Source: a virus
Lineage: Duplodnaviria > Heunggongvirae > Uroviricota > Caudoviricetes
DNA: 64,000 nt
IMG/VR virus record: IMGVR_UViG_2721755710_000007
Coordinates: 1 to 64,000 of that record
Direction: 5' to 3' (one strand)
The notes under the pieces were generated by a model. The model saw nothing but the letters and a program-made list of their open reading frames with translations, searched no databases and was not told the origin of the DNA. Positions 221 through 57,421 of the stretch are shown in pieces. Every line of letters starts with the position of its first letter. Position 1 is the stretch's first letter. Made by a program: the position numbers and the translations under genes.

Positions 221-1108
221 ATGATCACTTCAGCACAAAACCAATCAATCGAAAATGTATCTATCCCTGACGTCCTGAATGCCGGTATCCCGGCCATTAT
301 CCAGAACATCCGGGCCGCGCAACGCCGCGTTAGTTGTGATGACCTCACAGCGCGTTTTTTTGATAATGCGGTTCAGTCAGCGGAGATGCTTCACGCACAG
401 CTTATTGATGTTTATAACGCAGAAGCTGATAGCCATAACTCCCTGGTAGATGCAGCTGAAAATATGCAGTTGGATCTCGGTCTGAAGGGTAAAGAAATTG
501 AAGAGCTTCAGCTGGAAATTGAACATTTGAAACGCCAGCAACAGGACGCGATCGACGATGCGACGCATGACGCCAACCAGCGTGCTGATAATGCCGAACG
601 TATAAGCATTGAGCTGGAAACAAAACTCAATGAAATGACCGCGATGGTTGAACTGCGGAACTCACAGATTTCAACGCTAAAATCTCAATATAAAGAGATC
701 ATGAAACTTGATCCTTTTAACCTTGAGAAACGCTATAACAAAGCTAAAAGCGAGCGACAGGAACTGCGTAAGCAGGTCGCCGACCTTAACCAACAGCTCA
801 AAAAAACTATTAAAGATGCAAGCGAAGCGCGCGTGGCATTTGCTAATAAAAAAGCAGAGGTTACCGCGCTGGTTAATGAGAATGCCAAATTTGCGACGCT
901 CAAGAAGGAAATGTATGGCATTACTGAGCGCCGTTTCCCTGCAAGCAAACTTCATCCGACGTTAGGGCAAATCTCCTTCTTCCCGCGCCTCCTGGCTTAT
1001 GGGATCTCATCGCCTAAAGAGTTCAATAACGAGCGTCCTTATATCGTTTCTAAGCTGGACTTTGCTTATCAGTTCTGCTGCGACATGGGCTATGCCATTG
1101 ATATCTGA
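221..1108 (+). CDS. hypothetical coiled-coil protein (295 aa)
   Basis: Long ORF with heptad-like charged repeats; no recognisable catalytic motif. Confidence 0.4.
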   Translation: MITSAQNQSIENVSIPDVLNAGIPAIIQNIRAAQRRVSCDDLTARFFDNAVQSAEMLHAQLIDVYNAEADSHNSLVDAAENMQLDLGLKGKEIEELQLEIEHLKRQQQDAIDDATHDANQRADNAERISIELETKLNEMTAMVELRNSQISTLKSQYKEIMKLDPFNLEKRYNKAKSERQELRKQVADLNQQLKKTIKDASEARVAFANKKAEVTALVNENAKFATLKKEMYGITERRFPASKLHPTLGQISFFPRLLAYGISSPKEFNNERPYIVSKLDFAYQFCCDMGYAIDI

Positions 1109-1120
1109 ATCAACGAATGG

Positions 1121-1483
1121 TTGATGCCAAACTTCCAGCCGCTGGCCATTTTCCGCGAGTTCCAGCCGGAAGGTTGGGTAGAGTTCTTCCATGAATTGAT
1201 CTGTAAAGAGATGGAAAGCCGCCGCCCGGAACTGGTCCGCCGTGTCGAGTGGGCGCAAGAGGTTATGTTGGCAGATGCAGAGCTGCCGTTCGAACCGGAA
1301 TTTATTGATGATCTGGCAGCTAAAGGGCTGCATACCCTGTTTGATGTGGTTACCCGCCGTCATGAGCAGTTGGTTGTCGAATTGGGTTTAGAGGAAACAG
1401 CGGCAAGAAGACTTCTCGATGTTTGCTATGCACGTAGCGATGCATGGGAAAAAGAGAACGGCGGCACTATTTACGTTCGCTGA
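1121..1483 (+). CDS. hypothetical protein (120 aa)
   Basis: ORF 13 bp after the previous gene, followed by a terminator hairpin. Confidence 0.4.
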   Translation: MMPNFQPLAIFREFQPEGWVEFFHELICKEMESRRPELVRRVEWAQEVMLADAELPFEPEFIDDLAAKGLHTLFDVVTRRHEQLVVELGLEETAARRLLDVCYARSDAWEKENGGTIYVR

Positions 1484-2326: not shown

Positions 2327-5300
2327 CTATATTTTTCCGCCTACGCCTTTAAACTTCTCAATAAACGAGACGATTTTCTGGAAAACTGCCTGTTTTTTCG
2401 TTTTATATTGCGGATTTAACGGACTAAGTTTTGGTAATGTTTCGTTTAATTCTGTGCCATTTTCGGTGGCATATTCGCGTTTTAAAGACGTGCGAATATA
2501 GCGTTTTGCTGCATCTTCATTGAGATTTTCTTCTTTTATCAATGCTTCTGCTTCACGTTGCTGTTCGCGTTGAGCAAACGTAAAGAATGCGTCAATGATG
2601 CTGGCTTTGTCCGGTAAATCATCCAGGTTCGTTTGCTGAATAAAATCGACCACCAGGCCCTCTTTAGCACGGTTCCCTAGGCTTGAACGAATTAAGCGTT
2701 TGACCTCTTCGATCATTTCGCCCTTGCCTTTATTTTGTCTGTTGTGTTCGAAAATCAGTCCAAGGATATAATCCAGGTTTATTTCCTGAGACTTCAGCAA
2801 ATCGACCTCAAAAACTACGTCATCCCAGTCAGTGGTTGATTTCTCTTTTTTCTCAGCTTCTTTCTCACGGCGCTGCCAGTCGCGAATATCGTTATAGGCA
2901 GAACGATAATCCTGAATCTTGCGATCAGCAGGGAGACGAATTGTTTGCAATTTAGCGAACTTTTCATCATCCACATAATGCTCTGCTTTGAATTTTTCTA
3001 CCGCAACAGGATCGCTAAGATCGATTTGTTGCAGGGCTTTTAGCGTGGCAAATTCATCATAGTTTTGCAGGATGTTCTCGGCACGCAGGTATTCGCCAAA
3101 CAGTTTAACGAAGTCTTTCTTCTCTTTTTCACTTTCAATACTGGTAGGGTCAGGGAACCGTTGTTCCAGTTCTGAAACTACTGTCATAAAGCCGCGTTTA
3201 GCTTCACCAGTAGCAGCATCAGTAAAGCCTTCCATATACTCTGTATAACTCTTTTCTAACACCACATTTTTGGTGTTTTTGTCACCAAACAGCGTTATGG
3301 CATCAATAGTTGAGCGTTCCAGATCCCGGAAAGTGACGATATTACCGAAGGTTTTAGTAGCGTCATAAATGCGGTTGGTGCGGGAAAATGCCTGCATCAG
3401 GCCGTGAAAACGCAAGTTTTTATCGACGAATAGCGTGTTCAATGTTGGAGCATCGAAGCCGGTTAAAAACATCCCCACGACGATTAACAAGTCAACATCC
3501 TGATTTTTAACCCGCTGAGCCAGGTCCCGATAGTAGTTCTGAAAACCCTTGCTATCAGTACTGAAATTCATTTGAAAATGGTCGTTATATTCACGAATTG
3601 CAGCATCCAGAAACTCTTTAGCACTGCTGTCCATTGCGCTGGTATCAAAAGTTTCATCGGAAATTTCACCAATGGCATTTTGTTCTTCATTAGCGGCAAA
3701 GGAGAAGATTGTCGCAACACGCAGCGGTTTATAGGTAGCCGATTTATTAGCGGCTTCTTCTTGTAACCGTTTAAACGTCGCATAATAGGCTTTCGCGGCA
3801 TCCACGCTGCTCACTGCCAGCATGGCATTAAAGCCTTTGGAGCCTGGGAAGGTACGGTGGGTTTTCTGGCGGAAGTTGTTCAGGATATATTGCGTGATTT
3901 CCTGAATACGCATGGGATGAAGAAACGCCTGCTGATTTTCAGCCGCACTCAGTTTTTTCTCGTCAGTTTCTGTCTCTAAAGACTTAAACTGTGGCCGCAC
4001 ATCGTTGTAGTCCACCTTGAATTTGAGCACTTTTTCGTCACGAATCGCATCGGTAATTACATACGAATGCAATTCACGACCAAATACGCTGGCGGTTGTT
4101 TCTGAGCCTAAGGCGTTTTCCGGGAAAATAGGGGTGCCGGTAAAACCAAACTGATAATAGCGTTTGAATTTCTTCTTCAGGTTTTTCTGCGCTTCTCCAA
4201 ACTGGCTGCGGTGGCATTCATCAAATATAAACACCACTTGCTGATTATATACAGGCAGGTCGCTTTCTGCTTTCATCAGATTATTGAGTTTCTGAATAGT
4301 AGTGACGATAATTTTGTTATCGTCCTTATCCAGATTTCGTTTAAGGCCTGCGGTATTTTCCGAGCCGTTGACGCTGTCTGGCGAAAAACGCTGATATTCC
4401 TTCATGGTCTGGTAATCGAGGTCTTTCCTGTCGACCACAAAGAAGACTTTATCAATAAAGTCCAGCTCTGTTGCCAGACGCGCGGCTTTAAAGCTGGTGA
4501 GGGTTTTACCAGAACCGGTAGTGTGCCAGATATACCCACCGCTTTCCGGTTTTGACCAGTTCTTCGCTGTAAAGGAACTCTTAATTTTCCACAGAATGCG
4601 CTCGGTGGCGGCAATCTGGTACGGTCGCATCACCAGTAGCGTCTGACTACTGTCAAAAACGCTGTAGTTCACCAGAACATTCAGCAGAGTATGTTTCTGG
4701 AAAAAGGTAGCGGTAAAGTCTTTGAGGTCTTTAATCAGCGTGTTGTCTGATTTCGCCCAATTCATGGTGAAGTCAAAACTGTTTTTATCGCGCTTTGTCG
4801 TGTTGGCAAAATAACGGGTATCGGTGCCGTTAGAAATGACAAACAGTTGCAGATACTTAAACAGGGAATTTTCGCTGTTAAAACTCTCTTTACTGTAACG
4901 ATGTATCTGGTTGAAAGCCTCACGAATCGCCACCCCGCGTTTTTTTAGTTCGATTTGCACCAGCGGTAAACCATTAACCAGGATCGTGACGTCATAACGA
5001 TTAGCATGAGAACCCGTCTGTTCAAACTGCTGGATAATCTGCACCTTATTGCGCATGAGATTCTTTTTATCTATCAAATAGATGTTCTCAAGTCGCTCGT
5101 CATCAAAAATAAAGTCGCAAATATAGTCGATATGGATTTTACGGGTCTTATCCAGAATGCCATCGCTCGGGTTGTCCAGATACTGCTCCGTGAAACGCCG
5201 CCACTCGCTGTCATTAAACACCACACCATTGAGGCTCTGAAGCTGTTGTCGAACATTGGCCAGCATCGCCGACTGAGATTTTACGGATATAAATTCATAG

Positions 5301-5443
5301 CCCTGATTTCGCAGGTCCTGAATCAGTTCACGTTCCAGGTCCGATTCGCTCTGGTAGCTGTCGCCTGTTGGCTCAGCTTTGATGTACTTATCAAGAACGA
5401 TAAAGTTATTGGATTCAGCAATGGTGTGTGTCTGATGAGTCAT
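2327..5443 (-). CDS. hsdR: Type I restriction enzyme R subunit (1038 aa)
   Basis: Helicase motifs (TTGSGKT, DECH box); size matches Type IC HsdR; downstream of hsdM-hsdS. Confidence 0.85.
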
Positions 5444-5564: not shown

Positions 5565-6164
5565 TTAATTACTGACAGTTTCAGGTTTCGGGAAACTGAA
5601 CAGTAAATCACGGTAGTATTCGTATTGTTTCTGGCGCAACTCGATTTCACGCGGAAGACCTTCGGTGATGGAGTTAGTCAGGGTGTCGAAATTATCCAGA
5701 ATCCGAACGATTTCAGACTGGATGGCAAGGGATTTTTCCGGATTATCCGGGCAGGGGATTGGGATTTTTTTTTGAGAATAATTACTAATCCATTGGCGTT
5801 TATGGTCTCCCTCTGCGAATTCACTTGGTAATGTATTGAGCCAATAGTAAACATATTTCAGTAAGGTTTTATTATCATCACATGATGTAACCATTTTCAT
5901 AGCCGATGATTTTGCCTTAAAGTCAAAATCCACCCATTTATTAGCGGTGGTGAAATCATCAAAAATTATTACAGGTGCCTTTGATGCCTGATAAATACCA
6001 TGAGTCTCATTTGTGTATCCAAGAATAAATGTTTTTCCGGCAGTAAGAACCGGGATGGTATATGTGTCGTGATAATCTTTTGCTTTTACCAAATACTTTG
6101 TTGGCTGTTCATATTTGGTTATTTCCCCCAATGGCAACCACTCAACCTCAACCCCATCCAGCAA
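5565..6164 (-). CDS. hsdS: Type I specificity subunit, half-size with one target-recognition domain (199 aa)
   Basis: 24 bp downstream of hsdM; C-terminal conserved HsdS helix (...ILDNFDTLTNSITEGLPREIELRQKQYEYYRDLLF); only one TRD fits. Confidence 0.7.
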   Translation of the reverse strand: MLDGVEVEWLPLGEITKYEQPTKYLVKAKDYHDTYTIPVLTAGKTFILGYTNETHGIYQASKAPVIIFDDFTTANKWVDFDFKAKSSAMKMVTSCDDNKTLLKYVYYWLNTLPSEFAEGDHKRQWISNYSQKKIPIPCPDNPEKSLAIQSEIVRILDNFDTLTNSITEGLPREIELRQKQYEYYRDLLFSFPKPETVSN

Positions 6165-6188
6165 TTTTTCCAGATAAACTTAACTCGC

Positions 6189-7751
6189 TCATTTTTGCAC
6201 CTCGCAGCCTTCAATTTCAGCCACAATCGCATCAATATCTTTACGCAACTGGTCGATTTTGCTGACCGTGGTTTTCAGCTCAGCATTCAGCTCAGCAATA
6301 TCGATAATTTCGCGGTTATCTTTCGCTTCCACATAGCTGCTCACCGACAGGTTATAGTCATTAGCAACAACGGTCTCAAACGCGACAGATTTCGCCAGAT
6401 GAGCAACATCTTCCTTGCTGGCAAATACCTGCATAATCTGTTCGATATGGGTATCGGTCAGGATATTGTTGTTAGTCTCTTTTTTGAACAGTTCGCTGGC
6501 GTCAATAAACTGAACGTTGGTATCCGTTTTATGTTTGGACAGAACCAGAATGTTTACTGCAATGGTGGTGCCAAAGAACAGGTTCGGTGCCAGTGAAATT
6601 ACGGTTTCGACATAGTTATTGTCAATCAGATACTGACGGATTTTCTGCTCCGCGCCGCCACGGTAAAAAATACCCGGGAAGCAAACAATCGCAGCACGAC
6701 CTTTGGCAGAAAGATAGTTCAGCGCATGTAGTACAAAGGCGAAGTCAGCTTTTGATTTGGGGGCCAGAACGCCAGCCGGGGCAAAACGCTCATCGTTAAT
6801 CAGTGTCGGGTCATCGCTGCCAATCCATTTCACCGAATACGGCGGGTTAGAAACGATGGCATCAAACGGTTTTTCATCTCTGAAGTGCGGCTCAGTCAGT
6901 GTATTACCCAGCCTGATATCAAACTTGTCGTAGTTGATGTTGTGCAAAAACATGTTCATACGCGCCAGATTATAGGTCGTATGGTTGATTTCCTGACCGA
7001 AAAAGCCTTCTTCGATGATATGGTTATCAAACTGCTTTTTAGCCTGCAACAACAGTGAGCCGGAACCCGCTGCCGGGTCGTAGATTTTGTTAACGTTGGT
7101 CTGCCCGTGCATAGCCAGTTGTGCAATCAGCCTGGAGACGTGCTGCGGTGTAAAGAACTCACCGCCTGACTTACCAGCATTCGCCGCATAGTTAGAAATC
7201 AGGAACTCATAGGCATCGCCGAACAGGTCAATCTGATGTTCGTTAAAGTCGCCAAGCTTTAAGCCTTCAACCCCTTTCAGGACCGCAGCCAGGCGGGCAT
7301 TTTTATCCTTAACGGTGTTACCCAGGCGGTTACTGGTGGTATCGAAATCAGCAAACAGACCTTTGATGTCTGCTTCTGAAGGATAACCGTAAGCAGAACT
7401 TTCGATAGCAACGAAGATGCTGTTTAAATCTGCATTCAGTCTGTCATTGGTATTTGCTTTCGCCGCTACGTTGCAGAAAAGCTGACTGGGGTAGATGAAG
7501 TAGCCTTTAGTTTTGATGGCATCGTCTTTAATATCATCAGTAATTACGCTGTCATCCAGTTTCGCATAACAGATACTGTCATCACCGGCTTCAATATAGC
7601 TGGAAAAATTTTCGCTGATAAAACGGTAGAAAAGTGCGCCCAGAACGTATTGCTTAAAATCCCATCCATCGACCGAACCCCTGACATCGTTAGCAATTTG
7701 CCAGATTTGACGATGAAGCTCTGCACGTTGTTGAATACTTGTCATTTTCAT
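6189..7751 (-). CDS. hsdM: Type I N6-adenine DNA methyltransferase M subunit (520 aa)
   Basis: NPPY catalytic motif ([10 protein letters not shown]), AdoMet-binding region, conserved HsdM N-terminus. Confidence 0.85.
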
Positions 7752-10411: not shown

Positions 10412-10970
10412 GTGACCTGGGACGATCACAAGAAGAATTTTGCTCGCCTGGCGCGAGATGGTGGTTACACCATCGCACAGTATGCCGCCGAGTTTAATCT
10501 TAACCCTAATACCGCACGTCGTTATCTCCGTGCCTTCAAAGAAGACACCAGGACAGCGGACAGCCGCAAGCCAAATAAGCCAGTCAGGAAGCCTCTAAAA
10601 AGCATGATCATTGATCACGCTAATGATCAACGTGCAGGTGATCACATTGTGGCTGAAATGGCTGAAAAACAAAGAGTTAATGCTGTTGTCAGTGCCGCAG
10701 TTGAGAACGCTAAGCGCCAAAATAAGCGCATAAATGATCGTTCTGATGATCATGACGTGATCACCCGCGCCCAGCCGCCGCGCTGATGCCGCATTGTGGA
10801 TTGAGCATCGTAGAGAAGAAATTGCCGATATCGTCGATACAGGTGGTTATGGTGATGTCGATGCGGAAGGCATATCAAACGAAGCATGGCTTGAACAGGA
10901 TCTGGACGAAGACGAGGAGGAAGACGAAGAAGTTACCCGCAAACTGTACGGGGATGATGATTAATGGCCA
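10412..10970 (+). pseudogene. pacA: pacA, terminase small subunit, shortened and frameshifted
   Basis: N-terminal 124-codon ORF (10412-10786) with HTH-like start; acidic C-terminal tail (...[15 protein letters not shown]) is in another frame from about 10761; total about 180 codons. Confidence 0.6.
10605..10763 (+). other. pac packaging site (hexamer repeats with Dam GATC sites)
   Basis: Four TGATCA hexamers at 10605-10644 and three TGATC(A/G) at 10735-10763, the 4+3 arrangement of the P1 pac site. Confidence 0.8.
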
Positions 10971-13644: not shown

Positions 13645-14008
13645 AATTATGCCTCACTGTATTGACAACACAGAGCCTGAAGCTCTGACCTACTGTTTCA
13701 CCCATGATCCATGCTGGGGTAATCTAACAACATTGCGCTGTGTGTAAGATGAGCAATGCGGTGATGCTGCCAACTTACTGATTTAGTGTATGATGGTGTT
13801 TTTGAGGTGCTCCAGTGGCTTCTGTTTCTATCAGCTGTCCCTCCTGTTCAGCTACTGACGGGGTGGTGCGTAACGGCAAAAGCACCGCCGGACATCAGCG
13901 CTATCTCTGCTCTCACTGCCGTAAAACATGGCAACTGCAGTTCACTTACACCGCTTCTCAACCCGGTACGCACCAGAAAATCATTGATATGGCCATGAAT
14001 GGCGTTGG

Positions 14009-15461
<1,453 letters not shown>

Positions 15462-15586
15462 ATAGCTGTAATGCCGTTGTATAAGGTTTCCCTGTTTGCT
15501 CATTTCCTTCTGAGCCGCTCTACAACGCTGAAGACACATTAAATAGTGAATCCAAAGTCGTATTACGTAACGGCGGCAAAACTATA

Positions 15587-17815: not shown

Positions 17816-17820
17816 ACCAT

Positions 17821-21600: not shown

Positions 21601-21645
21601 GAAATAAGATGCATTTATCTCCCAGATAATATTGTAATATTAAAC

Positions 21646-22331: not shown

Positions 22332-22364
22332 ATTATGCGACGCCCGGCGAACCGGGCGCTCCTG

Positions 22365-33177: not shown

Positions 33178-33455
33178 GTGACCTCCTGATGTGAAATCAC
33201 TATACCGAAGTGGTTTTTATTTTTTTTCACAAACAGGACTTTTTTCAGTGATTTTTTTCTGAGAATTATGAGGGGCGTGTCGTTGGTGCGATGCATACCG
33301 ATAGTGAATAACACCAGATGAGCTCGGGAACGGCATAGCGGGGTGTACTTATGTTCGGCAGAAAAGTAGCTTTTTCTGCAATGGGTATTCCTGATCCGGT
33401 GATTTGAAAAGTGCTGTTTTACTTACTAAGTTATACATATATCTAGTGCCACTTT

Positions 33456-33612
33456 TTAATCAAAAGTGACCCTAGGTTTTTTGCGCATAGTGCCACTTTT
33501 TAAAAAAGTGACCCTATGTCCTGTCTACATAGGGTCACTTTTCACAAAGAAGTGACCCTATGTCGAGGCTCCATAGGGCCACTTTTCAGCAAAAAGTGAC
33601 CCTATGTAATAG
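33456..33612. repeat. array of four tandem palindromic units (core AAAAGTGACCCTATGT / ACATAGGGTCACTTTT)
   Basis: Units begin near 33456, 33489, 33527, 33571; each has 12-14 bp inverted arms around a short spacer. Confidence 0.8.
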
Positions 33613-34189
33613 CCATTGTTAATCAATCGGAAAAATATTCATGCTAGCTCGCTCTTATCGCTAAGGTTATTGCTGCTTTCTGCCGATAACAGTGCAAGTT
33701 TTGCGATTTTTTTAAGCGCTTCACAGTTCGTTAGCAAGCTCAGTTTTTTTTGATAAAATTCTGGTCAGTTTGTTTAAAAAGTGTTACAAGTAAGGCGAAT
33801 GGTTGAATGGTTAGTTTTAAGACTCAAATCGGCAGTATTAAAATTCCAAAAGTAGCTTTTCATACTTCAAAAAACCAAACTTTAATTTCATGTAGAAGAG
33901 TTGTACTATTGTATTGACTCAAGGACAATCCGACATGTCAGAATCAGATAACATAACGCGTAACTATTACGTACCGAGGTTTCGATTATTCGTAGTTACC
34001 GTGCATTCCTAATGTTATTGCCTATCCATGATCTTCTTCGTATCAATCAGGGTCTCCACTCTTGCAACGCCGTCTATTTGGAGACGGATTTGGGACAATG
34101 ACTGATAATGCATTTGAAGTTGAAACTCGTCCGGGAAGTTTCCTCGTTCCACGTTCTTTAGGCAAAGAGATTTCCTGGGATAATTTTTT

Positions 34190-34720
34190 ATGGCTGTTGT
34201 CGATGGTGACACTAACGTTATTCGAGAATATGACAGTGACGATGCTGACTTCGGTATTTACAATGCTGGGGAAAAAGTTACTTTACTGTGTGGCCGGGAA
34301 GACTTTTATAATCCGACAAAAATTCAGCAGTTACGCTCTAAGTGTGTAGATATACAAAATGATTACTTTATTCAAATCTTCTTTATGTCAATGCTTGCAC
34401 CTGAGTTTGTCAGCATATTTTTTGGATTAAAGCCTGCCACCGCAGATGCAATAAAAGATGTTGGCGTTTCATCACTTAAAGCAATTAACGATGTTGTTCT
34501 CTTTCCGCGAACAATTGCCTTTACGCCAGGACTGGGGGATGATAGCACTACGTTAAAATCTAAAGTATTCGCCAGGGCATACGAATTATCTGCCGACATT
34601 CGTTTGGGTAAAGTTAGTGATGACTTAATGGAACTACTGCGTTACGACACTATGTTTACGTGTCACCGTCAGGATGTGTTTAACTCATTAGCAAATAAAG
34701 TGCTCTTGAAGGATTATTGA
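34190..34720 (+). CDS. hypothetical protein, 176 aa (an upstream out-of-frame ORF 34062-34349 may be a frameshifted N-terminus)
   Basis: ORF divergent from the two-gene operon; ends 7 bp before IS1 copy 3. Confidence 0.4.
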   Translation: MAVVDGDTNVIREYDSDDADFGIYNAGEKVTLLCGREDFYNPTKIQQLRSKCVDIQNDYFIQIFFMSMLAPEFVSIFFGLKPATADAIKDVGVSSLKAINDVVLFPRTIAFTPGLGDDSTTLKSKVFARAYELSADIRLGKVSDDLMELLRYDTMFTCHRQDVFNSLANKVLLKDY

Positions 34721-34726
34721 ATATGG

Positions 34727-35494
34727 GGTAATGACTCCAACTTATTGATAGTGTTTTATGTTCAGATAATGCCCGATGACTTTGTCATGCAGCTCCACCG
34801 ATTTTGAGAACGACAGCGACTTCCGTCCCAGCCGTGCCAGGTGCTGCCTCAGATTCAGGTTATGCCGCTCAATTCGCTGCGTATATCGCTTGCTGATTAC
34901 GTGCAGCTTTCCCTTCAGGCGGGATTCATACAGCGGCCAGCCATCCGTCATCCATATCACCACGTCAAAGGGTGACAGCAGGCTCATAAGACGCCCCAGC
35001 GTCGCCATAGTGCGTTCACCGAATACGTGCGCAACAACCGTCTTCCGGAGACTGTCATACGCGTAAAACAGCCAGCGCTGGCGCGATTTAGCCCCGACAT
35101 AGCCCCACTGTTCGTCCATTTCCGCGCAGACGATGACGTCACTGCCCGGCTGTATGCGCGAGGTTACCGACTGCGGCCTGAGTTTTTTAAGTGACGTAAA
35201 ATCGTGTTGAGGCCAACGCCCATAATGCGGGCAGTTGCCCGGCATCCAACGCCATTCATGGCCATATCAATGATTTTCTGGTGCGTACCGGGTTGAGAAG
35301 CGGTGTAAGTGAACTGCAGTTGCCATGTTTTACGGCAGTGAGAGCAGAGATAGCGCTGATGTCCGGCGGTGCTTTTGCCGTTACGCACCACCCCGTCAGT
35401 AGCTGAACAGGAGGGACAGCTGATAGAAACAGAAGCCACTGGAGCACCTCAAAAACACCATCATACACTAAATCAGTAAGTTGGCAGCATCACC
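34727..35494 (-). mobile_element. IS1, copy 3
   Basis: Identical to copy 2, same orientation, with insA/insB ORFs (35164-35439, 34742-35245). Confidence 0.95.
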
Positions 35495-36968
35495 TATCAA
35501 TGGCCTGGGCAATACTTTCCGTCGAAAATGATTGCAACATATTGCCGATATCCTCAAATCCAAGTGATTTGAGAGCCTCACCAATGGCGCTGCTAATACC
35601 AGATACCAGTCCCCCCATATCAAGAACATTAGCTAACGTATAAGCGGCTTTTTGCTGGAATGATGGATCTTGTCCTGATTTAAGCCCAAACGCTCGACGT
35701 TGCGCTTCTGTATCATTCCAACCGGTTACCGCATCATAAATACCTCCAGCCACTGTGCCGACTAGGGGAATTGCGCGTAACGCCCCTTTACCAACTGCCT
35801 TTAATCCAAGTTTACCTGCTGCCCGGGCAGCCAAATCTCCGCCTTCATGGGCGAGAGTCTTCTTGCCACCACCGCGTAGCATTCCTACAAGTTTCTTTGC
35901 CCCCAGAGCGCCAAAAGCGAGTGCTCCAGCTTTTTTCAGCATGCCACGCCCCATTAACAACGACGCGACGCCACCGGCCCCCTTCCCTAACAGGCTAAAT
36001 AGTTTGGACAGCAAGCCGCCCTTCTTTTTCCCGGTGTTTTTGGCTATCTGATCAAGGGCACGGAGAATCTTGTCATTGCCCTCTTTAATTTCGCTGGTCT
36101 GCTCCTGAAGTTCCTGAACCGTCCGTTTTTGGGTGTTAACCTGAACGACATCGGCACTATTTTGCGATTTACGCCTAAAAAAACCTTTTCTACGGCTGTT
36201 ATCGTCGTTGCCACGAATCACATCGGCAATAGACTTTCTGGCACCATTAAGCGATCCACCAACTTCTTTTGATATCCCGCCAAGCTCCTTCCCTGCTGCC
36301 CACAATGGACCAGCAACGGCATAACCTAACGCATCGACGGCACGAGTCTCTGAAGGGTTACCTATGCCTTCAGCTACTTTTGACAGTTTTTTTAATAAAC
36401 CTGATTCAGCATTTAGACGCTCATCATCCTCTTTGCGCCTGGCCTTTTCAGCACGTTCAGCACGGGCATCTTCCGCTGCGGCCTTACTCCCTGACTTTCC
36501 AATAAAACGACCACGCGCATCGCGTTGGTTTTGGCTTTTTTGCGCACCGCCTTTTTGACCGAACATTTCGCGAGCGTGTTCGGCTGCTTCGGTCCGTTGC
36601 GCCTTTACATCTTCTGTTATAGCCTTCTTGCGTCGTTTTTTACCCTTTCGCGTAGTTGATTTGGCCTGCGGTTCCTGTAGAGCAACATCCTCCTGAACTA
36701 CACGAGAAACGTCCCCTAAATTAAGCCGTTTCATTGCCTCAACAATAGGGTCCACTGATGGCGCATTGGCCACAAAGTCTGGCCGGGAATTTTCGATTGT
36801 GCGATTTAATGCCGACACACTGCGAGAGACAGGATCAACTGTAGCAACTCGCCCACCTTTCAAATCTTCAACGGCTTCCCGAATACCTGCAAGCTCTTCC
36901 AGCTCTTTTGCGCTGGCGGTTTCAACCGTCCTTATCACATCGTCAATGTTGGCGTTTTTTCTTTCCAT
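35490..36968 (-). pseudogene. phage structural protein (tape-measure/Sit-like), C-terminally truncated by IS1
   Basis: 492-codon ORF whose last sense codon and stop lie in the IS1 terminal repeat; Gly/Lys/Ala-rich tape-measure-like composition. Confidence 0.5.
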
Positions 36969-37049
36969 GATCTTATCGCCTACCGCTTCGGTTTAAGTTT
37001 TTCTTCCAGTTTCTCCAACAGGAAAAACGCATAGGATTCAGTGAGCCTT

Positions 37050-37931
37050 TCAGCGTCCTGAATCGGTATACCCCCATACAAAACCAGGTTGGACACTAAG
37101 GTCTGATAGCTTTTCAATCCCCACCTGTGGAATGAAGTCGGTAGCCCGAAAGGGCACCCACAGACGGGTATACGCACCCTCTGTGGACTCCTTTGTATCC
37201 TGGTTTGGGCATTTGTGCGGCGGGAGACGAAGACGCATTTCGCCTTTATCGATGTAGCACGGTAAACCATGTTCGAGCTTTTCATGAGCCAGCCGGATGT
37301 GTGCCGCCAGCTTCATAAATTCAGTATCAATGGCCATCCGTTTGATCGTTTCATAACGACGCTCAGCCTGCTCTTCACGAGTACCGCTAACATCGTTATA
37401 AAGTTCACACTGATAAGCGAATTCCCAAAAACGCAAATCAACGATCGCTTCTTTGAATTCCGCGTCGTCTTCAGGTGGCAATGCTGCACGGCGCATCTCC
37501 AGCATTTCCATTGCCCAACCATCAAGCGGCACGATACGCCATTGATAAGGCACGCCCTCTACAGACACCTCAATATCGTCAATGAACGGTTCCACTTCCA
37601 GGACCTGGATATCTTCAGCCAGAGCATTCATATCGCAATCGTAATAATGCTCTTTACCGCAATGTTTACAGGTGTAGGTGAATGTCTCGACCGGTGTTTC
37701 ACGGGAGCCGGTAAATATCCACCATAACGCGGTAATCCGGTCCTGCGCCGTCCATGTCAGGGGATCATGTTTCGCGGGTTCAGCCAGCAAGGCTTTTAAA
37801 TACGCCGTTGTCTGTTGTTCTTGTTCCTCCGGTGTTATCGAGTTGAAACGCATCGCATCAGCAATATTTGGCTGACGGAACTGGATCAATTCAGTTGGCC
37901 GCGATGGTAGCGGGAAAAGGGGTAAAAGCAT
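37050..37931 (-). CDS. hypothetical phage protein (293 aa)
   Basis: ORF in a co-oriented cluster; CxxC...CxxxxxC motif. Confidence 0.45.
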   Translation of the reverse strand: MLLPLFPLPSRPTELIQFRQPNIADAMRFNSITPEEQEQQTTAYLKALLAEPAKHDPLTWTAQDRITALWWIFTGSRETPVETFTYTCKHCGKEHYYDCDMNALAEDIQVLEVEPFIDDIEVSVEGVPYQWRIVPLDGWAMEMLEMRRAALPPEDDAEFKEAIVDLRFWEFAYQCELYNDVSGTREEQAERRYETIKRMAIDTEFMKLAAHIRLAHEKLEHGLPCYIDKGEMRLRLPPHKCPNQDTKESTEGAYTRLWVPFRATDFIPQVGIEKLSDLSVQPGFVWGYTDSGR

Positions 37932-37945
37932 CCTTGCTCCTTAAT

Positions 37946-38557
37946 TCAAAGAGAAAAACTAAAGCCCAGAAGGGAAGCCAAAGAACTTGAGGATTGGTTA
38001 AACGTGCTGTGCAATGCGAAGGTCATTGGGAATGACTTAAATTCCGTAACCTGATCCCGCGCATAGGTGACATCGCCGGTAGTGACCGGGAATACCGTCA
38101 TCTCATTTTCCAGTTTGGTTAAGCCGGAAGACAGCAACCGATAAATACGCACATTGAGCAAATATTTAGACGGTATATTCCCGGTACCGTCCGGATTGAT
38201 CACCCGACTTTTTGCCGTCTTAAACCAGTCTAAAACGAGGCCATCAACGGTATCCCTGACCATCATTGTTATCTGCCCAGGCGAACGCTCCGTTGGTTGA
38301 AGGATATTCCCTCCGCCGATTTTAATCGTTTCATATTCGATGCTGTAATCGTGGTAGGTAATGTCTTTGGCAAAGAAGTCTGCCCCCTCCAGTCCATCAA
38401 CTTCGACAGAGAACTGCCATCCTTGCGCGAACAGCATTTTGTTCATGATGATTGACGTCAGCTTACCAACTTCCCGCTCACCAACGCCGGAGCCAAATAA
38501 TGTCGTCGTTAATGCCGAAGATACATAAGACTTTACTGAAGCAACATTAAGCCCCAT
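37946..38557 (-). CDS. hypothetical phage structural protein (203 aa)
   Basis: Tightly spaced ORF in the same cluster. Confidence 0.45.
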   Translation of the reverse strand: MGLNVASVKSYVSSALTTTLFGSGVGEREVGKLTSIIMNKMLFAQGWQFSVEVDGLEGADFFAKDITYHDYSIEYETIKIGGGNILQPTERSPGQITMMVRDTVDGLVLDWFKTAKSRVINPDGTGNIPSKYLLNVRIYRLLSSGLTKLENEMTVFPVTTGDVTYARDQVTEFKSFPMTFALHSTFNQSSSSLASLLGFSFSL

Positions 38558-38567
38558 ATCAGCCCCC

Positions 38568-39158
<591 letters not shown>

Positions 39159-39214
39159 TTAACAGATTCTACGAGTTGTCATTTGTGACAGTATGCTCGC
39201 AATCGTAGTGATTA

Positions 39215-39754
39215 CTACCACCAACTGCTAGCTTTCTTCTCTCTAGCTTTTCCTTCGCTTTGCAGTAAATCTTTACTTCCTGTAGAAATATTTCTATTTG
39301 CATCAGCCTCAGACTGAATTACATCTGTCTTAGCTGCTCTCTCCTTCAACTCCTGCTCTATAAAATCGTTTTCTCGCTGGACACGAGCCGCTTTTGCTTG
39401 CAGTTCGAGTTTCATGCTTTCGAGTTGCAGCTTGCGAAGCTCATCCTCATAAGCTTGATCTCGCTTCTTGTCATTTGCTAGCTCGGCTTCTCGTTTCGCT
39501 CTACGTTCATTTTCTGCAGCAACACGCTGTTTTTCGCGTGCAGCAGCGGCAGATGCTGCTTTTTCTCTTCTAATACGTTCAGCTTGTGCTTGTTGGCGAA
39601 TAAGTTCTTTTCTGGCATCCTCAGCTTGCTGCTCTTTAGCTCGCCCTTCATTTTCCGCTTGAGCAATAGCAGCAATTTGACTTTGCAACGAGTTAGCCAA
39701 GGCAGTGCCTACACTAAACGTAGAAAAGATTAGAAATAAAATAATTTTATTCAT
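39215..39754 (-). CDS. secreted coiled-coil protein (179 aa)
   Basis: N-terminal signal peptide, then Ala/Glu/Arg/Lys-rich coiled coil. Confidence 0.45.
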   Translation of the reverse strand: MNKIILFLIFSTFSVGTALANSLQSQIAAIAQAENEGRAKEQQAEDARKELIRQQAQAERIRREKAASAAAAREKQRVAAENERRAKREAELANDKKRDQAYEDELRKLQLESMKLELQAKAARVQRENDFIEQELKERAAKTDVIQSEADANRNISTGSKDLLQSEGKAREKKASSWW

Positions 39755-39757
39755 AAA

Positions 39758-40279
39758 TTATTTCTTTTCTGGACAAGTAGCATTTGGCTGAATTCGAGTT
39801 TCATTATCTTTAGTTGAAATAAGCACAGCAAGCCCCGTTGTAAACTGGCATGCTTTACCAACTTGAGTTGAAGTGAACACCTTAGTTCCTTCTTTATAAG
39901 TCAGTGAAACACCTTCAACAATTGTTTTATCACTAACCAAAGAACCAGCCGCTGCACCAAGAGCCGCACCACCAGTACCGCCAGCTACAGCACCCAGTGT
40001 CGATGTGCCTTTAACATTATAACCGGCAACGCCCCCAGCAACAGCTCCCAGTACCGCACCAAATGTCTGTGCCGCTTCTTTATTAGCTTTATTATCAACT
40101 TTCACTTTAGCTGGAAGCACAGAGATAATATTGACTGTCTTTGTTTCCTGCTTCGAATTCAATTGAGCGGTATCATAAACATCGGCAGCATAATCAGCAC
40201 CGCTAGATTGACACCCAGAAAGAAGAATTGCAGATACAACAAGAGCGCATAAAGTATACTTTTTAGACATAAGAATCAT
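39758..40279 (-). CDS. lipoprotein with glycine-zipper region (173 aa)
   Basis: Lipobox LSGC; GAVAGGxxG repeats. Confidence 0.5.
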   Translation of the reverse strand: MILMSKKYTLCALVVSAILLSGCQSSGADYAADVYDTAQLNSKQETKTVNIISVLPAKVKVDNKANKEAAQTFGAVLGAVAGGVAGYNVKGTSTLGAVAGGTGGAALGAAAGSLVSDKTIVEGVSLTYKEGTKVFTSTQVGKACQFTTGLAVLISTKDNETRIQPNATCPEKK

Positions 40280-40560
40280 CCCAGAAAAACAAAAACCGGC
40301 GAGAAGTTACCACGAGAACGGAAAGTAAACAAGAATACTCCCATTGACTTATATCAAATAATCAACTTTTTATAAGCTATCCCTAACTTATTGTGTATAG
40401 CTGAAAAGTCAGAGATAAGTTCACCATCTGCATTATTTCTTAAGTTAATAGTTTATTGCTAACTTAATTTATGTATCGACTATTGATATCCATCTTAAAG
40501 TAACAATATCCCTCTGCATTATTTTTCATCACAAATAATACATCTATTGCACTACGCTCA

Positions 40561-40577
40561 CCTGCTCTAATAAATTT
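40561..40577 (+). promoter_or_regulatory. C1 operator-like site upstream of c4-icd-ant
   Basis: cctgctctaataaattt in AT-rich promoter region. Confidence 0.45.
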
Positions 40578-40769
40578 GTATTTTTAAGTCGCGAATGCTA
40601 TCTTTTCGCATCATATTGACCTTTTAATCGTTCAGGCTTATAGTTTCGCCGTCGTAGCAAATTCTGCGACCAGGTTTGACAGCCTGAATGATTGTGCGGA
40701 CAACCGCAGATTTCCGATATTGCGGTATTTTTGTGTCCGTTAAACCGCGTTACGCCCAAATTATGGTGG

Positions 40770-40855
40770 GGCGTGATGGGGAGGCTTCGGCCTGCTGGTT
40801 TCACAATCGCCAGTCTGTCAACCCTGTCACGTCCTGCCACCTGTTTGACAGCGGG
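40770..40855 (+). ncRNA. c4: candidate c4 antisense immunity RNA
   Basis: Segment containing tcacaatc and ctgtcaa, complementary to paired targets ttgacag/gattgtg at 40668-40688 and 40845-40880; boundaries approximate. Confidence 0.4.
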
Positions 40856-40891
40856 TAGCAGGTTGTTAAACCTGATTGTGAGGCCGTAACT

Positions 40892-41113
40892 ATGGTTAAT
40901 GCCAATCCTTGCGCACGCCCAGAATTCATCTGGCGTTTCTATTCCTGTAAAAAACACCACTATCACTTCGTTATCGCAGCAACTGAAGACGAAGCACGCT
41001 CTCAATTGCCTGATGGCCCCTGCATTTTTACTGCCCGTTTTTCAACTAACTCGCGCAATTCACTTAGTTACTGGAGCCTCCCCTTCTCTGCCGACGTTCA
41101 GGGGGGTTTATGA
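40892..41113 (+). CDS. icd: Icd, interference with cell division (73 aa)
   Basis: 73-aa ORF overlapping the start of ant, downstream of the candidate c4 region. Confidence 0.65.
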   Translation: MVNANPCARPEFIWRFYSCKKHHYHFVIAATEDEARSQLPDGPCIFTARFSTNSRNSLSYWSLPFSADVQGGL

Positions 41114-42144
41114 AAACACCTCTCGTCACCCGTAATGAAATAGCCGAAGCGATCGCCTTGCATACTGCCTGTATGCCGACACGGGAGATCCCCGGCGCAA
41201 TTGCTAACTATTTCATGATAACCAGACGTTTTTATACCCGAACAGATAAGGCTGTGATCAACAGGCTACTGATAGCCGAGATCAGGGATTATTTGATTGA
41301 ACAAGGACGTCTACGTTACGCAACAGTGGCAGCAGAAATGAGAAAGGAGGCACATAGAATGACCGGTAATAATTTAAATGTTGAAAAACCAGCACCTGTT
41401 GCTTCAGCTACGCCAGCACCAGCCCTGAATGTCATCCCCAACACCGGAGACACAATCGACAGCCAAACATTGTTGAAGATGGTCAATGAGGCACGGAAAT
41501 TATGTAGCGAAAAACCAGTTCGCAACAATGATTTCATTGCCAGAGTTAAGGATGAGCTTGAAGGAGAAACCTACGAAATTTTCGTAGGTCAAAAAAACGG
41601 CGCAGAAATAGATATTATAACCATGACCTACAAACAAGCCCTGCGAGTTGCCGCGCGCGAGTCAAAAGCGGTCCGCCGTTCGCTGATCGACAAACTGGAA
41701 GAATTGCAGCAGGCAAACTCCCCTACCCCATCGATCCCCCAAACATTACCAGAAGCTCTACGCCTGGCTGCCGAGTTGGCAGAACAGAAAATGCAGTTGG
41801 AACAACAGCTGGTGGCCGCAGCCCCTAAAGTCGATTTTGCCGACCGGGTATCAGCGGCTAATGGAATCCTGATCGGGGACTTTGCAAAGGTCGTTGGACT
41901 TAAGCAAAACGCCCTTTTCTCATGGTTGCGCCAGAACGGCATTCTCATGGCTTTTGGTGCGCGCAAAAACGTACCGCGCCAGCAGTACATTAACGCCGGG
42001 TATTTCACGGTGAAAGAAGTGGTGCTGGATGATGAAAATGGCTACCAGATACGGCTGACGCCCCAATTAACGGGTAAAGGCCAGCAGTGGTTAACTCGCA
42101 AGCTACTTGATGCTGGTTTGTTAAAACCAGTAGCAATAGGTTAA
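41110..42144 (+). CDS. ant: antirepressor Ant (344 aa)
   Basis: C-terminal region shares a motif with the next gene (LPEALRLAAELAEQK...); position after icd as in P1. Confidence 0.65.
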   Translation: MKTPLVTRNEIAEAIALHTACMPTREIPGAIANYFMITRRFYTRTDKAVINRLLIAEIRDYLIEQGRLRYATVAAEMRKEAHRMTGNNLNVEKPAPVASATPAPALNVIPNTGDTIDSQTLLKMVNEARKLCSEKPVRNNDFIARVKDELEGETYEIFVGQKNGAEIDIITMTYKQALRVAARESKAVRRSLIDKLEELQQANSPTPSIPQTLPEALRLAAELAEQKMQLEQQLVAAAPKVDFADRVSAANGILIGDFAKVVGLKQNALFSWLRQNGILMAFGARKNVPRQQYINAGYFTVKEVVLDDENGYQIRLTPQLTGKGQQWLTRKLLDAGLLKPVAIG

Positions 42145-42221
42145 CAAAAGAAAAAACCTGCCAGCTAACTGGCAGGTTTCTGAGCAGATCGTCCAACCCG
42201 ATCTGGATCGAGTCAGAAAAA

Positions 42222-42238
42222 TTTGCTCTAATAAATTT
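42222..42238 (+). promoter_or_regulatory. C1 operator-like site
   Basis: tttgctctaataaattt upstream of the kilA-like gene. Confidence 0.5.
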
Positions 42239-42307
42239 CGTTTTCTAAGTGCAAAGAATCACCATTTCGAGCTGGTGATTGAAGGTTGATGCAAATTTGG
42301 AGAAAAA

Positions 42308-43108
42308 ATGCAACAAACATTCAATGCGGATATGAATATATCAAACCTTCATCAAAATGTCGATCCTTCCACCACTCTGCCCGTTATTTGTGGTGTTGAA
42401 ATTACGACCGACCGCGCTGGCCGTTACAACCTTAATGCTCTACACAGAGCGAGCGGACTCGGTGCCCATAAAGCGCCAGCTCAATGGCTAAGAACGCTGT
42501 CAGCCAAACAGCTCATCGAAGAGCTGGAAAAAGAAACTATGCAGAATTGCATAGTTTCGTTCGAAGGCCGTGGCGGCGGCACTTTTGCCCATGAATTGCT
42601 CGCAGTGGAGTACGCTGGTTGGATTTCTCCCGCGTTTCGGCTGAAGGTAAACCAGACATTTATCGACTATCGCGCTGGAAGATTACAACCTGCTATTCCG
42701 AAGAGCCTCCCAGAAGCTCTCCGTTTGGCTGCTGACCTGGCAGAGCAAAAGCAACGGCTGGAGCAAAAAATGCTGATGGATGCACCTAAAGTCGAATTCG
42801 CCGAACGCGTTGCTACCGCCAGCGGGGTTCTAATCGGCAACTATGCCAAAGTGCTCGGCCTGGGCCAAAACTATCTCTTCACCTGGTTGCGTGATAACGG
42901 AATTCTGATCGCAACCGGTGAACGCAGGAACGTCCCCAAACAAGAATACATATCCCGTGGGTATTTCACCCTTAAAGAAACCGTGATCGATACAAGCAAT
43001 GGAAGCAGGATTTCTTTCACGACTCGTATAACCGGCAAAGGTCAGCAGTGGCTGATGAAGCGATTGCTTGATGCTGGTGTGCTGGTACCTGTCGCGGCAA
43101 CGCGCTAA
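42308..43108 (+). CDS. kilA: KilA-like protein (266 aa)
   Basis: Position between ant and repL; C-terminal domain paralogous to Ant. Confidence 0.55.
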   Translation: MQQTFNADMNISNLHQNVDPSTTLPVICGVEITTDRAGRYNLNALHRASGLGAHKAPAQWLRTLSAKQLIEELEKETMQNCIVSFEGRGGGTFAHELLAVEYAGWISPAFRLKVNQTFIDYRAGRLQPAIPKSLPEALRLAADLAEQKQRLEQKMLMDAPKVEFAERVATASGVLIGNYAKVLGLGQNYLFTWLRDNGILIATGERRNVPKQEYISRGYFTLKETVIDTSNGSRISFTTRITGKGQQWLMKRLLDAGVLVPVAATR

Positions 43109-43137
43109 CAGACGTAGTAAGAACCACCAGCATTGTA

Positions 43138-43983
43138 ATGCTGGCTAAAGTCACTTTCCTGAGCTGTATAACGATGAGCGATTTTACTTTTTCTGGCTAT
43201 GAATTGGCCTTCTTTGTAACACACTCCGGTCTATCCCGTAGCGCCGGGCATATCCTGTCGCAATGTGCAAATCTCGCGGCAACAACCAGTGAATACTTCA
43301 TTCACAAGCCCCACCGCCTGATCGCGGCAGAAACTGGTTATAGCCAATCAACCGTCGTTCGTGCATTCCGTGAAGCTGTAAACAAAGGAATTCTATCTGT
43401 AGAGATTGTTATCGGCGATCACCGTGAACGTCGCGCTAACCTGTACCGGTTTACACCATCCTTTTTGGCCTTCGCACAACAAACCAAAAATGCGCTGATT
43501 GAAAGCAAATTAAAGATCTCTTCAGCGGCAACCAAGGTTAAAGCTGTTCTCGCTAAGACATTGGCTTTATTTGATTTTTTATCCACACCCCCATGTCAAA
43601 ATGATACCCCCTCCCCCTGTCAGGATGACGTGGCAATAAAGAATAAGAAGTCACAAGTTAAAAAAACAAAAAGATCAGTTTCCGGCGGTGCCGGAACGAC
43701 CAGACTCAAAAAATTGACTTCATGGATCGCTGAGGCAAAAGCAAAGGCTGACAATCTGCGGTTATCCAAAAAACGCGCTCAAAAACATGAGTTCAAGCAG
43801 AAAGTAGAGGCGGCTGCGCGGAAATATGCTTACCTGAAGAACAAGCGTTCGCCTGATATTGGCGGGATATCAAACTTCGATAATCTACCGCATTGCATGA
43901 CGGTAAACGAAGCTCTTAATGCGGTTTTAGCCAAAAATAAAGATAACGAAAAATGGGGTATACCGGCAGGATTCAGGGGGTGA
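43138..43983 (+). CDS. repL: RepL lytic replication protein (281 aa)
   Basis: 281-aa ORF (MLAKVTFLSCITMSDFTFSGYELAFFVTHSGLSRSAG...) recognised as RepL. Confidence 0.8.
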   Translation: MLAKVTFLSCITMSDFTFSGYELAFFVTHSGLSRSAGHILSQCANLAATTSEYFIHKPHRLIAAETGYSQSTVVRAFREAVNKGILSVEIVIGDHRERRANLYRFTPSFLAFAQQTKNALIESKLKISSAATKVKAVLAKTLALFDFLSTPPCQNDTPSPCQDDVAIKNKKSQVKKTKRSVSGGAGTTRLKKLTSWIAEAKAKADNLRLSKKRAQKHEFKQKVEAAARKYAYLKNKRSPDIGGISNFDNLPHCMTVNEALNAVLAKNKDNEKWGIPAGFRG

Positions 43984-43986
43984 TAG

Positions 43987-44003
43987 ATTGCTCTAATCTG
44001 GAG
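43987..44003 (+). promoter_or_regulatory. C1 operator-like site
   Basis: attgctctaatctggag. Confidence 0.45.
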
Positions 44004-44034
44004 TCACCTGGCGTTTTCAGTTTGAGGTCGGAGA

Positions 44035-44279
44035 TGCAATCTGATTTTTTACAGTTAGCGATCGCTTTTGCAGGATATGTTTGTATTGGCTTCTGTGTAT
44101 ACATGATCAGCCGAAAAATGCTTGTCGATATCTACCGCAAAGAACGAGCAGAGGAGATCTTAGTATGGATTTTCTTTGGCGCGGTCTGGCCATTAGGGAT
44201 CATGTTTGCTGCAACATTTCTTCTGATGTGGATATTCACCCTTCCAGGTGATTTCTATAGAAAAAAAGCCAGACATTGA
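44035..44279 (+). CDS. small membrane protein (81 aa from internal Met)
   Basis: Two hydrophobic helices; ORF-track entry 43953-44279 probably over-extended. Confidence 0.4.
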
Positions 44280-44402
44280 TACAATCGTTGCGGGTGCTTG
44301 AGGCTATCTGCTTCAGGCATGACCCGAAAAGCAGATAGAAGAAAGCCCCAGATAACATTACGCGTCCTGCAAGACGCTTAACATTAATCTGAGGCCATAT
44401 CT

Positions 44403-44609
44403 ATGCTTAGCATACGTAGATTAGCCTCTTACCGACCAAAAGGTCAAGGAGAAGCAGGCTATGAAGCAGCAAAAAGCGATGTTAATCGCTCTGATCGTCA
44501 TCTGTCTAACCGTCATTGTGACGGCACTGGTAACGAGGAAAGACCTCTGCGAGGTACGAATCCGAACCGGCCAGACGGAGGTCACTGTCTTCACAGCCTA
44601 CGAATCTGA
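44403..44609 (+). CDS. mok-like overlapping reading frame
   Basis: 68-codon ORF overlapping the hok-like gene in another frame. Confidence 0.4.
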   Translation: MLSIRRLASYRPKGQGEAGYEAAKSDVNRSDRHLSNRHCDGTGNEERPLRGTNPNRPDGGHCLHSLRI

Positions 44610-44616
44610 AAGGTAA
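44461..44616 (+). CDS. hok: Hok/Gef-family membrane toxin (51 aa)
   Basis: MKQQKAMLIALIVICLTVIVTALVTRKDLCEVRIRTGQTEVTVFTAYESER resembles Hok; GC hairpin ggcggggagtgatccccgcc just downstream. Confidence 0.8.
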   Translation: MKQQKAMLIALIVICLTVIVTALVTRKDLCEVRIRTGQTEVTVFTAYESER

Positions 44617-44970
44617 GAGACCTGGCGGGGAGTGATCCCCGCCACTCTTCGTGTGTCTGGTAACCTCAATGCACCCTTTTCTCCCCAATAGTGTAAAACA
44701 CAATGAAGTAGAAGGAGTTATTTCACATCATGCAAAGATTCAGACCATATCTCCCAATAGCCTTCGCGACATGATGACTTTCAGAAATATCTAGCTGTTA
44801 ACAAAATTCCATACTTGCTTTGCTAATACCACCTAGATTATATATGGAAAAATACACCTAAAACTTAAACAAATTATATCCACAACAAACATCCATCTAT
44901 TAGGATTAAAATTAATTTAATAATAAATAATACAACACCGGTTCATTTTCTAACAAACCGGTGGGCACCA

Positions 44971-46041: not shown

Positions 46042-46260
46042 AAACTTTGACGCTACATAAATTTAACCATGTGCATACTAAATATTTAAGGTAGAAAAGT
46101 ATAGGAGTATTTATTAATAGGTAACTGTTAGTTTACACTCACTTCATACCAGAGTATTTACAAGATGTTATTTTACTCTATTCGCTAGGCGGTGGAATGC
46201 GGTTGTATCAAGGGGAGGTAAACCTCCCCCGAAGAAGATTAAAAGTACAAGGGATAACAC

Positions 46261-46770: not shown

Positions 46771-46781
46771 ATAAAATCCTT

Positions 46782-47363: not shown

Positions 47364-47398
47364 TCAAGTTAAAGGCCGGAGTTCTCCGGCCTCCTCCT

Positions 47399-48214: not shown

Positions 48215-48223
48215 TGTATTCCC

Positions 48224-49813: not shown

Positions 49814-49873
49814 AACTTTCCCTGTTATGCGCCCCGCACGGGGGCGCTATGTTAAACGGAGAACTTCCCCTGA

Positions 49874-57413: not shown

Positions 57414-57421
57414 GATATCTC

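Follow-up and report, generated by a model that had tools for sequence, protein, structure and literature searches.

The conversion of P1 phage-plasmids into plasmids has already been described. Pfeifer & Rocha (Nat Commun 2024, PMC10879196) report 38 plasmids that derive from P1-like phage-plasmids, most of which fall in one well-supported clade. In these P1-derived plasmids, genes for lysis, tails and regulators are under-represented. A relaxase or oriT is present in 30 of the 38, resistance genes are present in 29, and 8 are IncY. Their conclusion is that gene loss and exchange turn phage-plasmids into mobilisable plasmids (PMC10879196). The stretch analysed here is a 64-kb portion of IMG/VR record IMGVR_UViG_2721755710_000007, positions 1 to 64,000 (the window). 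It contains a truncated copy of sit, which in P1 (NC_005856 40988..44410) encodes the structural injection transglycosylase and putative tail ruler. The window very probably represents an IncY plasmid descended from a P1-like phage-plasmid, in which sit is truncated by IS1, 31 kb of P1 sequence is deleted, and an 11-kb, IS1-bounded mosaic derived from plasmids stands in its place.

The earlier note on this sequence described a 492-codon, minus-strand open reading frame (ORF) of tape-measure or Sit-like identity that runs into the terminal repeat of IS1 copy 3, which ends it and removes its C-terminus. This description is correct. The ORF aligns without gaps to residues 1-491 of P1 Sit (1140 aa), with 479/491 residues identical (98%). 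P1 homology on the sit side begins exactly at window 35495, which corresponds to P1 42937. The final sense codon, AGG, is two thirds IS1: the A is a sit base, and the GG belongs to the left inverted repeat (IRL) of IS1. The TGA stop consists entirely of IRL sequence. The features at this junction are as follows.

34727..35494, minus strand: IS1 copy 3, IS1A-like, 768 bp; its IRL abuts sit, and both 23-bp terminal repeats are perfect
35164..35439 and 34742..35245: insA and insB of IS1 copy 3, both intact
35490..36968, minus strand: sit' pseudogene, a 492-codon ORF (P1 Sit residues 1-491, then Arg and TGA)
37050..37931, minus strand: pmgB, intact, in the LPsit late operon upstream of sit'
37946..38557, minus strand: tub, intact, in the LPsit late operon
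38568..39134, minus strand: pmgC, intact, in the LPsit late operon
~39166-39184: the LPsit promoter, with one substitution relative to P1

The C-terminal 649 residues of Sit are gone from the window ORF, including the SLT lytic transglycosylase domain (PF01464), which Pfam places at residues 748-867 of P1 Sit. A Pfam search of the window ORF matches zero domains, SLT included. A full-length sit encodes about 1140 aa and is followed by pmgA-bplA-16; the window ORF has 492 codons, and pmgA, bplA and 16 have no tblastn match. The ORF is a dead remnant of P1 sit, the gene for the tail tape-measure and injection transglycosylase, and no function is expected of the truncated peptide. The junction is a base-exact observation and not a matter of statistics.

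The IS1 in the window has the features of its family (768 bp, 23-bp inverted repeats, insA and insB) and is 98.8% identical to the IS1 carried by P1. Copy 3 is flanked by CCATTGATA and CCATATTCA. These flanks contain no 8-9 bp target-site duplication, which indicates that copy 3 lies at a junction made by rearrangement and not by simple insertion. BLAST alignments of sit overrun 18 bp into IS1 (35477-35494 against P1 42920-42936). The cause is an 8-bp identity, TAAGTTGG, that the IS1 IRL shares with the deleted part of P1 sit and that is judged to be coincidental.

The window was compared with P1 by local blastn, and P1 proteins were compared with the window by tblastn (E<1e-5). Apart from P1 12286-42936, the window is colinear with P1 and in the same orientation, and 37.3 kb of it matches P1 at 85% identity or higher. 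The segments matched by blastn are listed below.

1-2251: P1 pmgR, pmgS, pap
7852-13758: P1 phd, doc, pdcA, pdcB, lpa, pacA', pacB, c1, coi
15462-18399: P1 lox, cra, cre, c8, ref
19080-19774: P1 mat
21650-24181: P1 lxc, ulx, darB 3' end
35495-39186: P1 sit', pmgB, tub, pmgC
40563-43997: P1 c4, icd, ant, kilA, repL
46228-51750: P1 bplB, pmgG, 21, 22, 23
54127-59288: P1 incA, repA to hrdC
60309-63777: P1 dmt to upl

P1 12286-42936 (31 kb) has no blastn counterpart anywhere in the 64-kb window. In P1 this block holds the 5' part of darB, portal, pro, the lysis genes, ssb, the dar operon, cin, the tail fibres, R, 16, bplA, pmgA and the 3' part of sit. By tblastn, 21 proteins of the block (prt, pro, lyz, ssb, isaA, isaB, hxr, ddrB, ddrA, darA, hdf, lydB, lydA, lydC, cin, U, S, R, 16, bplA and pmgA) have no match in the window, and no divergent copies of the missing genes are found there. 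The absence of the P1 morphogenetic block, as previously proposed, is borne out. The left breakpoint of the deletion lies at 24181/24182 (P1 12285) and is free of insertion sequences (IS). It leaves a 3' remnant of darB.

22368..24182, minus strand: darB' remnant, DarB residues 1651-2255, ~1.8 kb; two thirds of darB is deleted

An intact relative, MH422554.1, contains the full canonical darB-to-sit block. The window lacks positions 5767-37303 of this relative, and both breakpoints are unchanged. MH422554.1 is 99.7% identical to the window across sit'-pmgC and the neighbouring DUF5384 region. The absence of res-mod had been counted as part of the loss. This does not hold, since res-mod is likewise absent from intact P1-like MH422554.1, where merely 1.2 kb separates mat and lxc; its absence is therefore not damage. 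The description of 18982-35494 as wholly unrelated cargo is accurate for 24182-35494 but not for the remainder, which includes a mat homologue (~19155-19909), lxc and ulx (21646-22331) and the 1.8-kb darB 3' remnant (22368-24182).

A 300-bp junction probe was searched in PLSDB and in RefSeq E. coli plasmids, and both matching plasmids were then compared whole. The probe has a 100% full-length match in one PLSDB plasmid and in one further RefSeq E. coli plasmid. These are p22Q34-2 (NZ_ON934557.1; complete circular, 113,939 bp, no origin recorded) and p02B17002_B (NZ_JBVWFT010000002.1; complete circular, 102,734 bp, Ottawa, Canada). Both contain the identical IS1::sit junction and the identical darB breakpoint, and both are 99.9% identical to the window over shared sequence. 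On the full circles of both plasmids, P1 12286-42919 has no counterpart apart from IS1. The Prokaryotic Genome Annotation Pipeline (PGAP) labels the sit remnant in p02B17002_B a 'lytic transglycosylase domain-containing protein', incomplete and missing its C-terminus. The exact junction is thus already in public records, where it is annotated as a pseudogene. A literature search on p22Q34-2 found nothing.

Both complete relatives are typed IncY/MOBH/mobilizable (MOB-suite) and carry sul2, aph(3'')-Ib, aph(6)-Id, dfrA14 and tet(A), all outside the region equivalent to the window. Plasmid p22Q34-2 additionally carries floR and qnrS1. Compared with these two plasmids, the window is missing a further ~640 bp from pacA, 881 bp adjoining IS1 copy 3, and a 7.6-kb stretch from between mobH and IS1 copy 2.

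The left junction is more widespread. The IS-free darB'|repA4' junction is present at 99.3% identity or higher in 21 PLSDB plasmids and in 21/5426 complete E. coli genomes. Another 14 records in PLSDB and another 17 of the E. coli genomes align across the darB' breakpoint (query positions 1-217). The sources of darB'|repA4' carriers include human, poultry, pig, fox, frog, lettuce and sediment. Some members have other replicons (IncHI1B or IncFIB by MOB-suite) with the cargo order unchanged. LR883966 plasmid 2 (IncY, from a Norwegian fox isolate) has the same darB breakpoint as the window. In this plasmid, sit ends 86 bp further upstream, at P1 43023, where an IS1 of another variant and the opposite orientation cuts it. 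Longer sit remnants, which would mark an ancestral right junction, were looked for in pPK5074-91kb, pF1267-1, pEM10-18-28_1, pHZ13-2 and p573-4. These plasmids have other replicons, and the stretches compared contain no sit beside the cargo.

The sequence that replaces the deleted block is an 11.3-kb mosaic (24182-35494). Its content was read from ORF calls, NCBIfam matches and the PGAP annotation of p02B17002_B, which is 99.97% identical. The first part (24182..31168) and the second part (31937..34726), a remnant of a MOBH-type transfer module, are separated by IS1 copy 2.

~24314-24565: repA4 fragment (first part)
24795..25330, plus strand: YefM/RelE-type toxin-antitoxin pair (first part)
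26190..29687, minus strand: AIDA-I-type autotransporter, 1165 aa (first part)
~29735-30963, minus strand: IS3-family element (first part)
31169..31936, minus strand: IS1 copy 2, without a target-site duplication; the terminal 26 bp of the mobH relaxase gene directly adjoin its IRL
31937-31962: mobH', 26 bp (second part)
31973..32695, minus strand: gene for a 240-aa hypothetical protein (second part)
32692..33177, minus strand: mobI, intact (second part)
33178-33934: 757-bp intergenic region between mobI and the trhR-like pseudogene
33444-33604: candidate oriT repeat array within this intergenic region
33935..34720, plus strand: trhR-like gene, frameshifted (second part)

The mobI module is 84-89% identical to modules of 200-340 kb plasmids that contain full mobH and trh genes. 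In the intergenic region, the 11-nt motif AAGTGRCCCTA occurs 8 times as four inverted pairs within 161 bp (33444-33604), a number reached in 0/100 shuffles. More than 1,200 large Enterobacterales plasmids share the surrounding 160-bp non-coding core (33428-33587) with ~83% conservation, but not its flanks. The array is a candidate for the oriT, or for a relaxosome binding array, of a MOBH/IncHI-like module. A search for literature defining an IncHI/MOBH oriT beside mobI returned nothing directly usable, and the oriT call remains that of a candidate.

Adjacent deletion through intramolecular transposition is a classical behaviour of IS1. No target-site duplication, in cis or between copies, is present at the three IS1 copies in the window or at the five copies in each of p22Q34-2 and p02B17002_B. 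Every copy therefore sits at a rearrangement junction, and the order of events is not derivable from the IS1 flanks. The breakpoints on the IS1 side differ between near-identical relatives. Next to IS1, the mobH remnant is 26 bp long in the window (junction 31936/31937) and 227, 555, 1317 or 1632 bp long in these relatives. These lengths form a natural nested series of deletions from an IS1 end. The window also lacks 881 bp beside the right inverted repeat (IRR) of IS1 copy 3 and 7.6 kb beside the IRL of IS1 copy 2, both of which are present in p22Q34-2. Beside IS1 copy 1, relatives typed as IncHI1B contain IS1-dmsABC(D)-ISKpn26; in the window, all that is left of dmsABC(D)-ISKpn26 is 938 bp of ISKpn26, and in p02B17002_B this remnant is gone as well. 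Inversion between IS1 copies also occurs: the mobI module of the window is inverted relative to that of LR883966. Together, the lack of target duplications and the differing breakpoints point to repeated IS1-mediated adjacent deletion.

As in the classical process, IS1 is kept at the junction, one flank is replaced, there is no target duplication, and breakpoints are nested among relatives. Two points differ: the darB junction is IS-free, and homologous recombination between IS1 copies could yield equal end products. Because the darB'|repA4' junction lacks an IS, at least one step was something other than a simple IS1 adjacent deletion, and this join was probably made by recombination with a donor plasmid. 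The likely course is that a foreign plasmid segment joined P1 at darB, and that IS1-mediated adjacent deletions, with recombination or inversion between IS1 copies, removed P1 DNA up to codon 492 of sit. A simple IS1 insertion in sit, as in pEcQE11-421-2, is a plausible first-step state that occurs in nature. IS1-driven events may still be trimming the flanks.

Further lesions are present outside the replaced block.

221..1483, plus strand: pmgS with an internal stop (ORF 221..1108, 295/420 codons); PGAP flags the same in p02B17002_B
10412..10786, plus strand: pacA' (pacA region 10412-10964), PacA residues 1-120, then a frameshift caused by a ~640-bp deletion (P1 90891-91528)
13760..15464, plus strand: IS1 copy 1 (13760-14527) and the 938-bp ISKpn26/IS5-like remnant, within imcA at P1 94516/94518

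The pacA deletion is specific to the window; p22Q34-2 and p02B17002_B have full-length pacA. PacB is intact and PacA is frameshifted after residue 120, so that the pacase as a whole is not intact. P1 sequence is kept to 90890, beyond the annotated pac cleavage sites (P1 90804-90813). The insertion in imcA severs coi-c1 from the P1coi promoter and from the LexA-controlled P2coi promoter. It may block SOS induction and lock the element in a repressed state.

The set for plasmid maintenance and immunity (RepA/oriR, ParAB, cre-lox, phd-doc and c1) is present in the window. By tblastn, identity to P1 is 100% for RepA, Phd and Doc, 99% for Cre and 99.6% for C1. ParA (58%) and ParB (43%; 51865-54005) are divergent alleles. 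A RepA identical to that of P1 beside divergent ParA and ParB is a mosaic of P1 replication and non-P1 partition. Further intact proteins, with their identity to P1, are Lpa (98.7%), Ant1 (90%), KilA (99%), RepL (97.5%), gp23 (capsid, 100%) and gp22 (sheath, 98.7%). Also intact are gp21, Tub, PmgB, PmgC, BplB and PacB. The portal, Pro, all lysis genes, Ssb, the Dar proteins, Cin and the C segment, the tail fibres, R, 16, BplA, PmgA and the Sit C-terminus are lost. Judged by this gene content, the element would be unable to assemble, fill or release a virion without a helper, and inducibility appears to be lost. It would be maintained as a plasmid, and the mobI and candidate oriT that it has gained might allow its mobilisation.

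The absence of the block from the window and from the whole replicons of both complete relatives, together with the lesions in pacA, pmgS and imcA, agrees with the degraded, P1-derived plasmid that the earlier note proposed. That note also held that a lineage in which this gene order is normal would speak against degradation. The order is indeed shared among relatives. Intact close relatives keep the canonical P1 order, however, so the shared order strengthens the interpretation as a degraded element. Three points weigh against this interpretation. The order of events is not recoverable, and the left junction is IS-free. The ORFs of c1, coi, lpa, ant, kilA and repL are intact, and derepression and lytic replication might still occur. 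Beyond the window, absence of the genes is shown only in the two nearest relatives (99.9% identical).

A chimeric assembly, in which a misjoin at an IS1 repeat falsely places sit beside unrelated DNA, had also been suggested. The window does contain three copies of IS1, a classic cause of misassembly. The junction is nevertheless base-identical in two independently assembled, complete circular plasmids that lack the block on their whole replicons, and the junctions specific to the window lie at unique non-IS1 breakpoints and are hence not repeat collapses. The probability of a chimera is close to nil. A simple IS1 insertion or an IS1-mediated inversion could instead leave the 3' half of sit and the morphogenetic block intact but relocated, on the replicon outside the 64-kb window. 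Inversion of IS1-flanked segments does occur between relatives (the mobI module in LR883966 against that in the window), and in pEcQE11-421-2 an IS1B has simply inserted in sit while every downstream gene is retained. Such a relocation is extremely improbable, as P1 12286-42919 is absent, apart from IS1, from the full circles of both relatives with the same junction, and the part of these relatives beyond the window consists of the resistance region and P1 70.7-81.9 kb.

Two further explanations involve a helper. The pac region, 23, 22, the tube and the baseplate genes could be kept because a compatible P1-like phage-plasmid (for example of the p0111-replicon type) supplies the portal, fibres, lysis functions and PacA in trans. 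This would fit the retention of P1 sequence to 90890, past the annotated pac cleavage sites, and the state of 23, 22, 21, tub, pmgB, pmgC, bplB and pacB, which are free of stops and 97-100% identical to P1. Divergence from P1 is so low, however, that recency alone predicts intact ORFs; pmgS and pacA are already broken, and there is no sign of selection. On entry, a P1 of the same immunity type would also face repression by the resident C1. Dependence on a helper is very unlikely on this evidence. The element could also be a dual hitch-hiker rather than a case of simple decay, having kept the pac region and some of the P1 structural genes and gained the mobI/oriT module. Two routes of transfer would then be available: transduction with the help of a heteroimmune P1-like phage-plasmid, or mobilisation by an IncHI/MOBH conjugative plasmid. 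This too is very unlikely. Descent from a P1-like phage-plasmid through deletion and replacement of the block remains the preferred interpretation.

Elsewhere in the window, several regions differ from P1. A type I restriction-modification locus (2252-7851) replaces P1 pmgT-humD between pap and phd.

2327..5443, minus strand: hsdR
5565..6191, minus strand: hsdS, half-length, 627 bp (also 627 bp in p02B17002_B; 1236 bp in p22Q34-2)
6188..7744, minus strand: hsdM

A 490-bp double alignment suggests that hsdS was shortened by deletion between its internal repeats. The dmt region (59289-60308) contains ~1 kb extra inside dmt relative to P1; in relatives, dmt is annotated as a 3.0-3.1 kb Dam-family methyltransferase, and in one a cytosine-methyltransferase fragment is present. 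A DUF5384 protein and a lipoprotein replace the P1 sim region (39187-40562), as in intact MH422554.1, and hokD and a MazG-like gene replace rlfA, rlfB and pmgF (43998-46227). The sim and rlfA/rlfB/pmgF replacements are ordinary variable spots of P1-like genomes.

The finding itself is ordinary and raises no new question. It is a base-resolved example of a phage-plasmid becoming a plain, possibly mobilisable resistance plasmid through IS1 activity, and it bears on predicting the spread of IncY/P1-like resistance plasmids by transduction. For annotation, the ORF should carry the label sit pseudogene, and the replicon should not be named a phage.

The sit locus of the window and that of P1 have in common the N-terminal 491 residues and the LPsit-pmgC-tub-pmgB-sit operon context. 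Unlike P1 Sit, the window copy lacks the C-terminal 649 residues with the SLT domain, ends in IS1 and is a pseudogene. The P1-like plasmid pEcQE11-421-2 (NZ_CP048823.1) also has IS1 in sit. Unlike the window, it contains a simple IS1B insertion at another position; neither half of sit is lost, and the tail, lysis and dar genes downstream are all present. The window resembles the P1-derived plasmids of PMC10879196 in its IncY P1 backbone, in the absence of the lysis, portal and tail-fibre classes and in the gain of conjugation-related sequence, with resistance genes in its complete relatives. Unlike those P1-derived plasmids that contain a relaxase, it retains only 26 bp of mobH, and its mobilisation would be possible only fully in trans.

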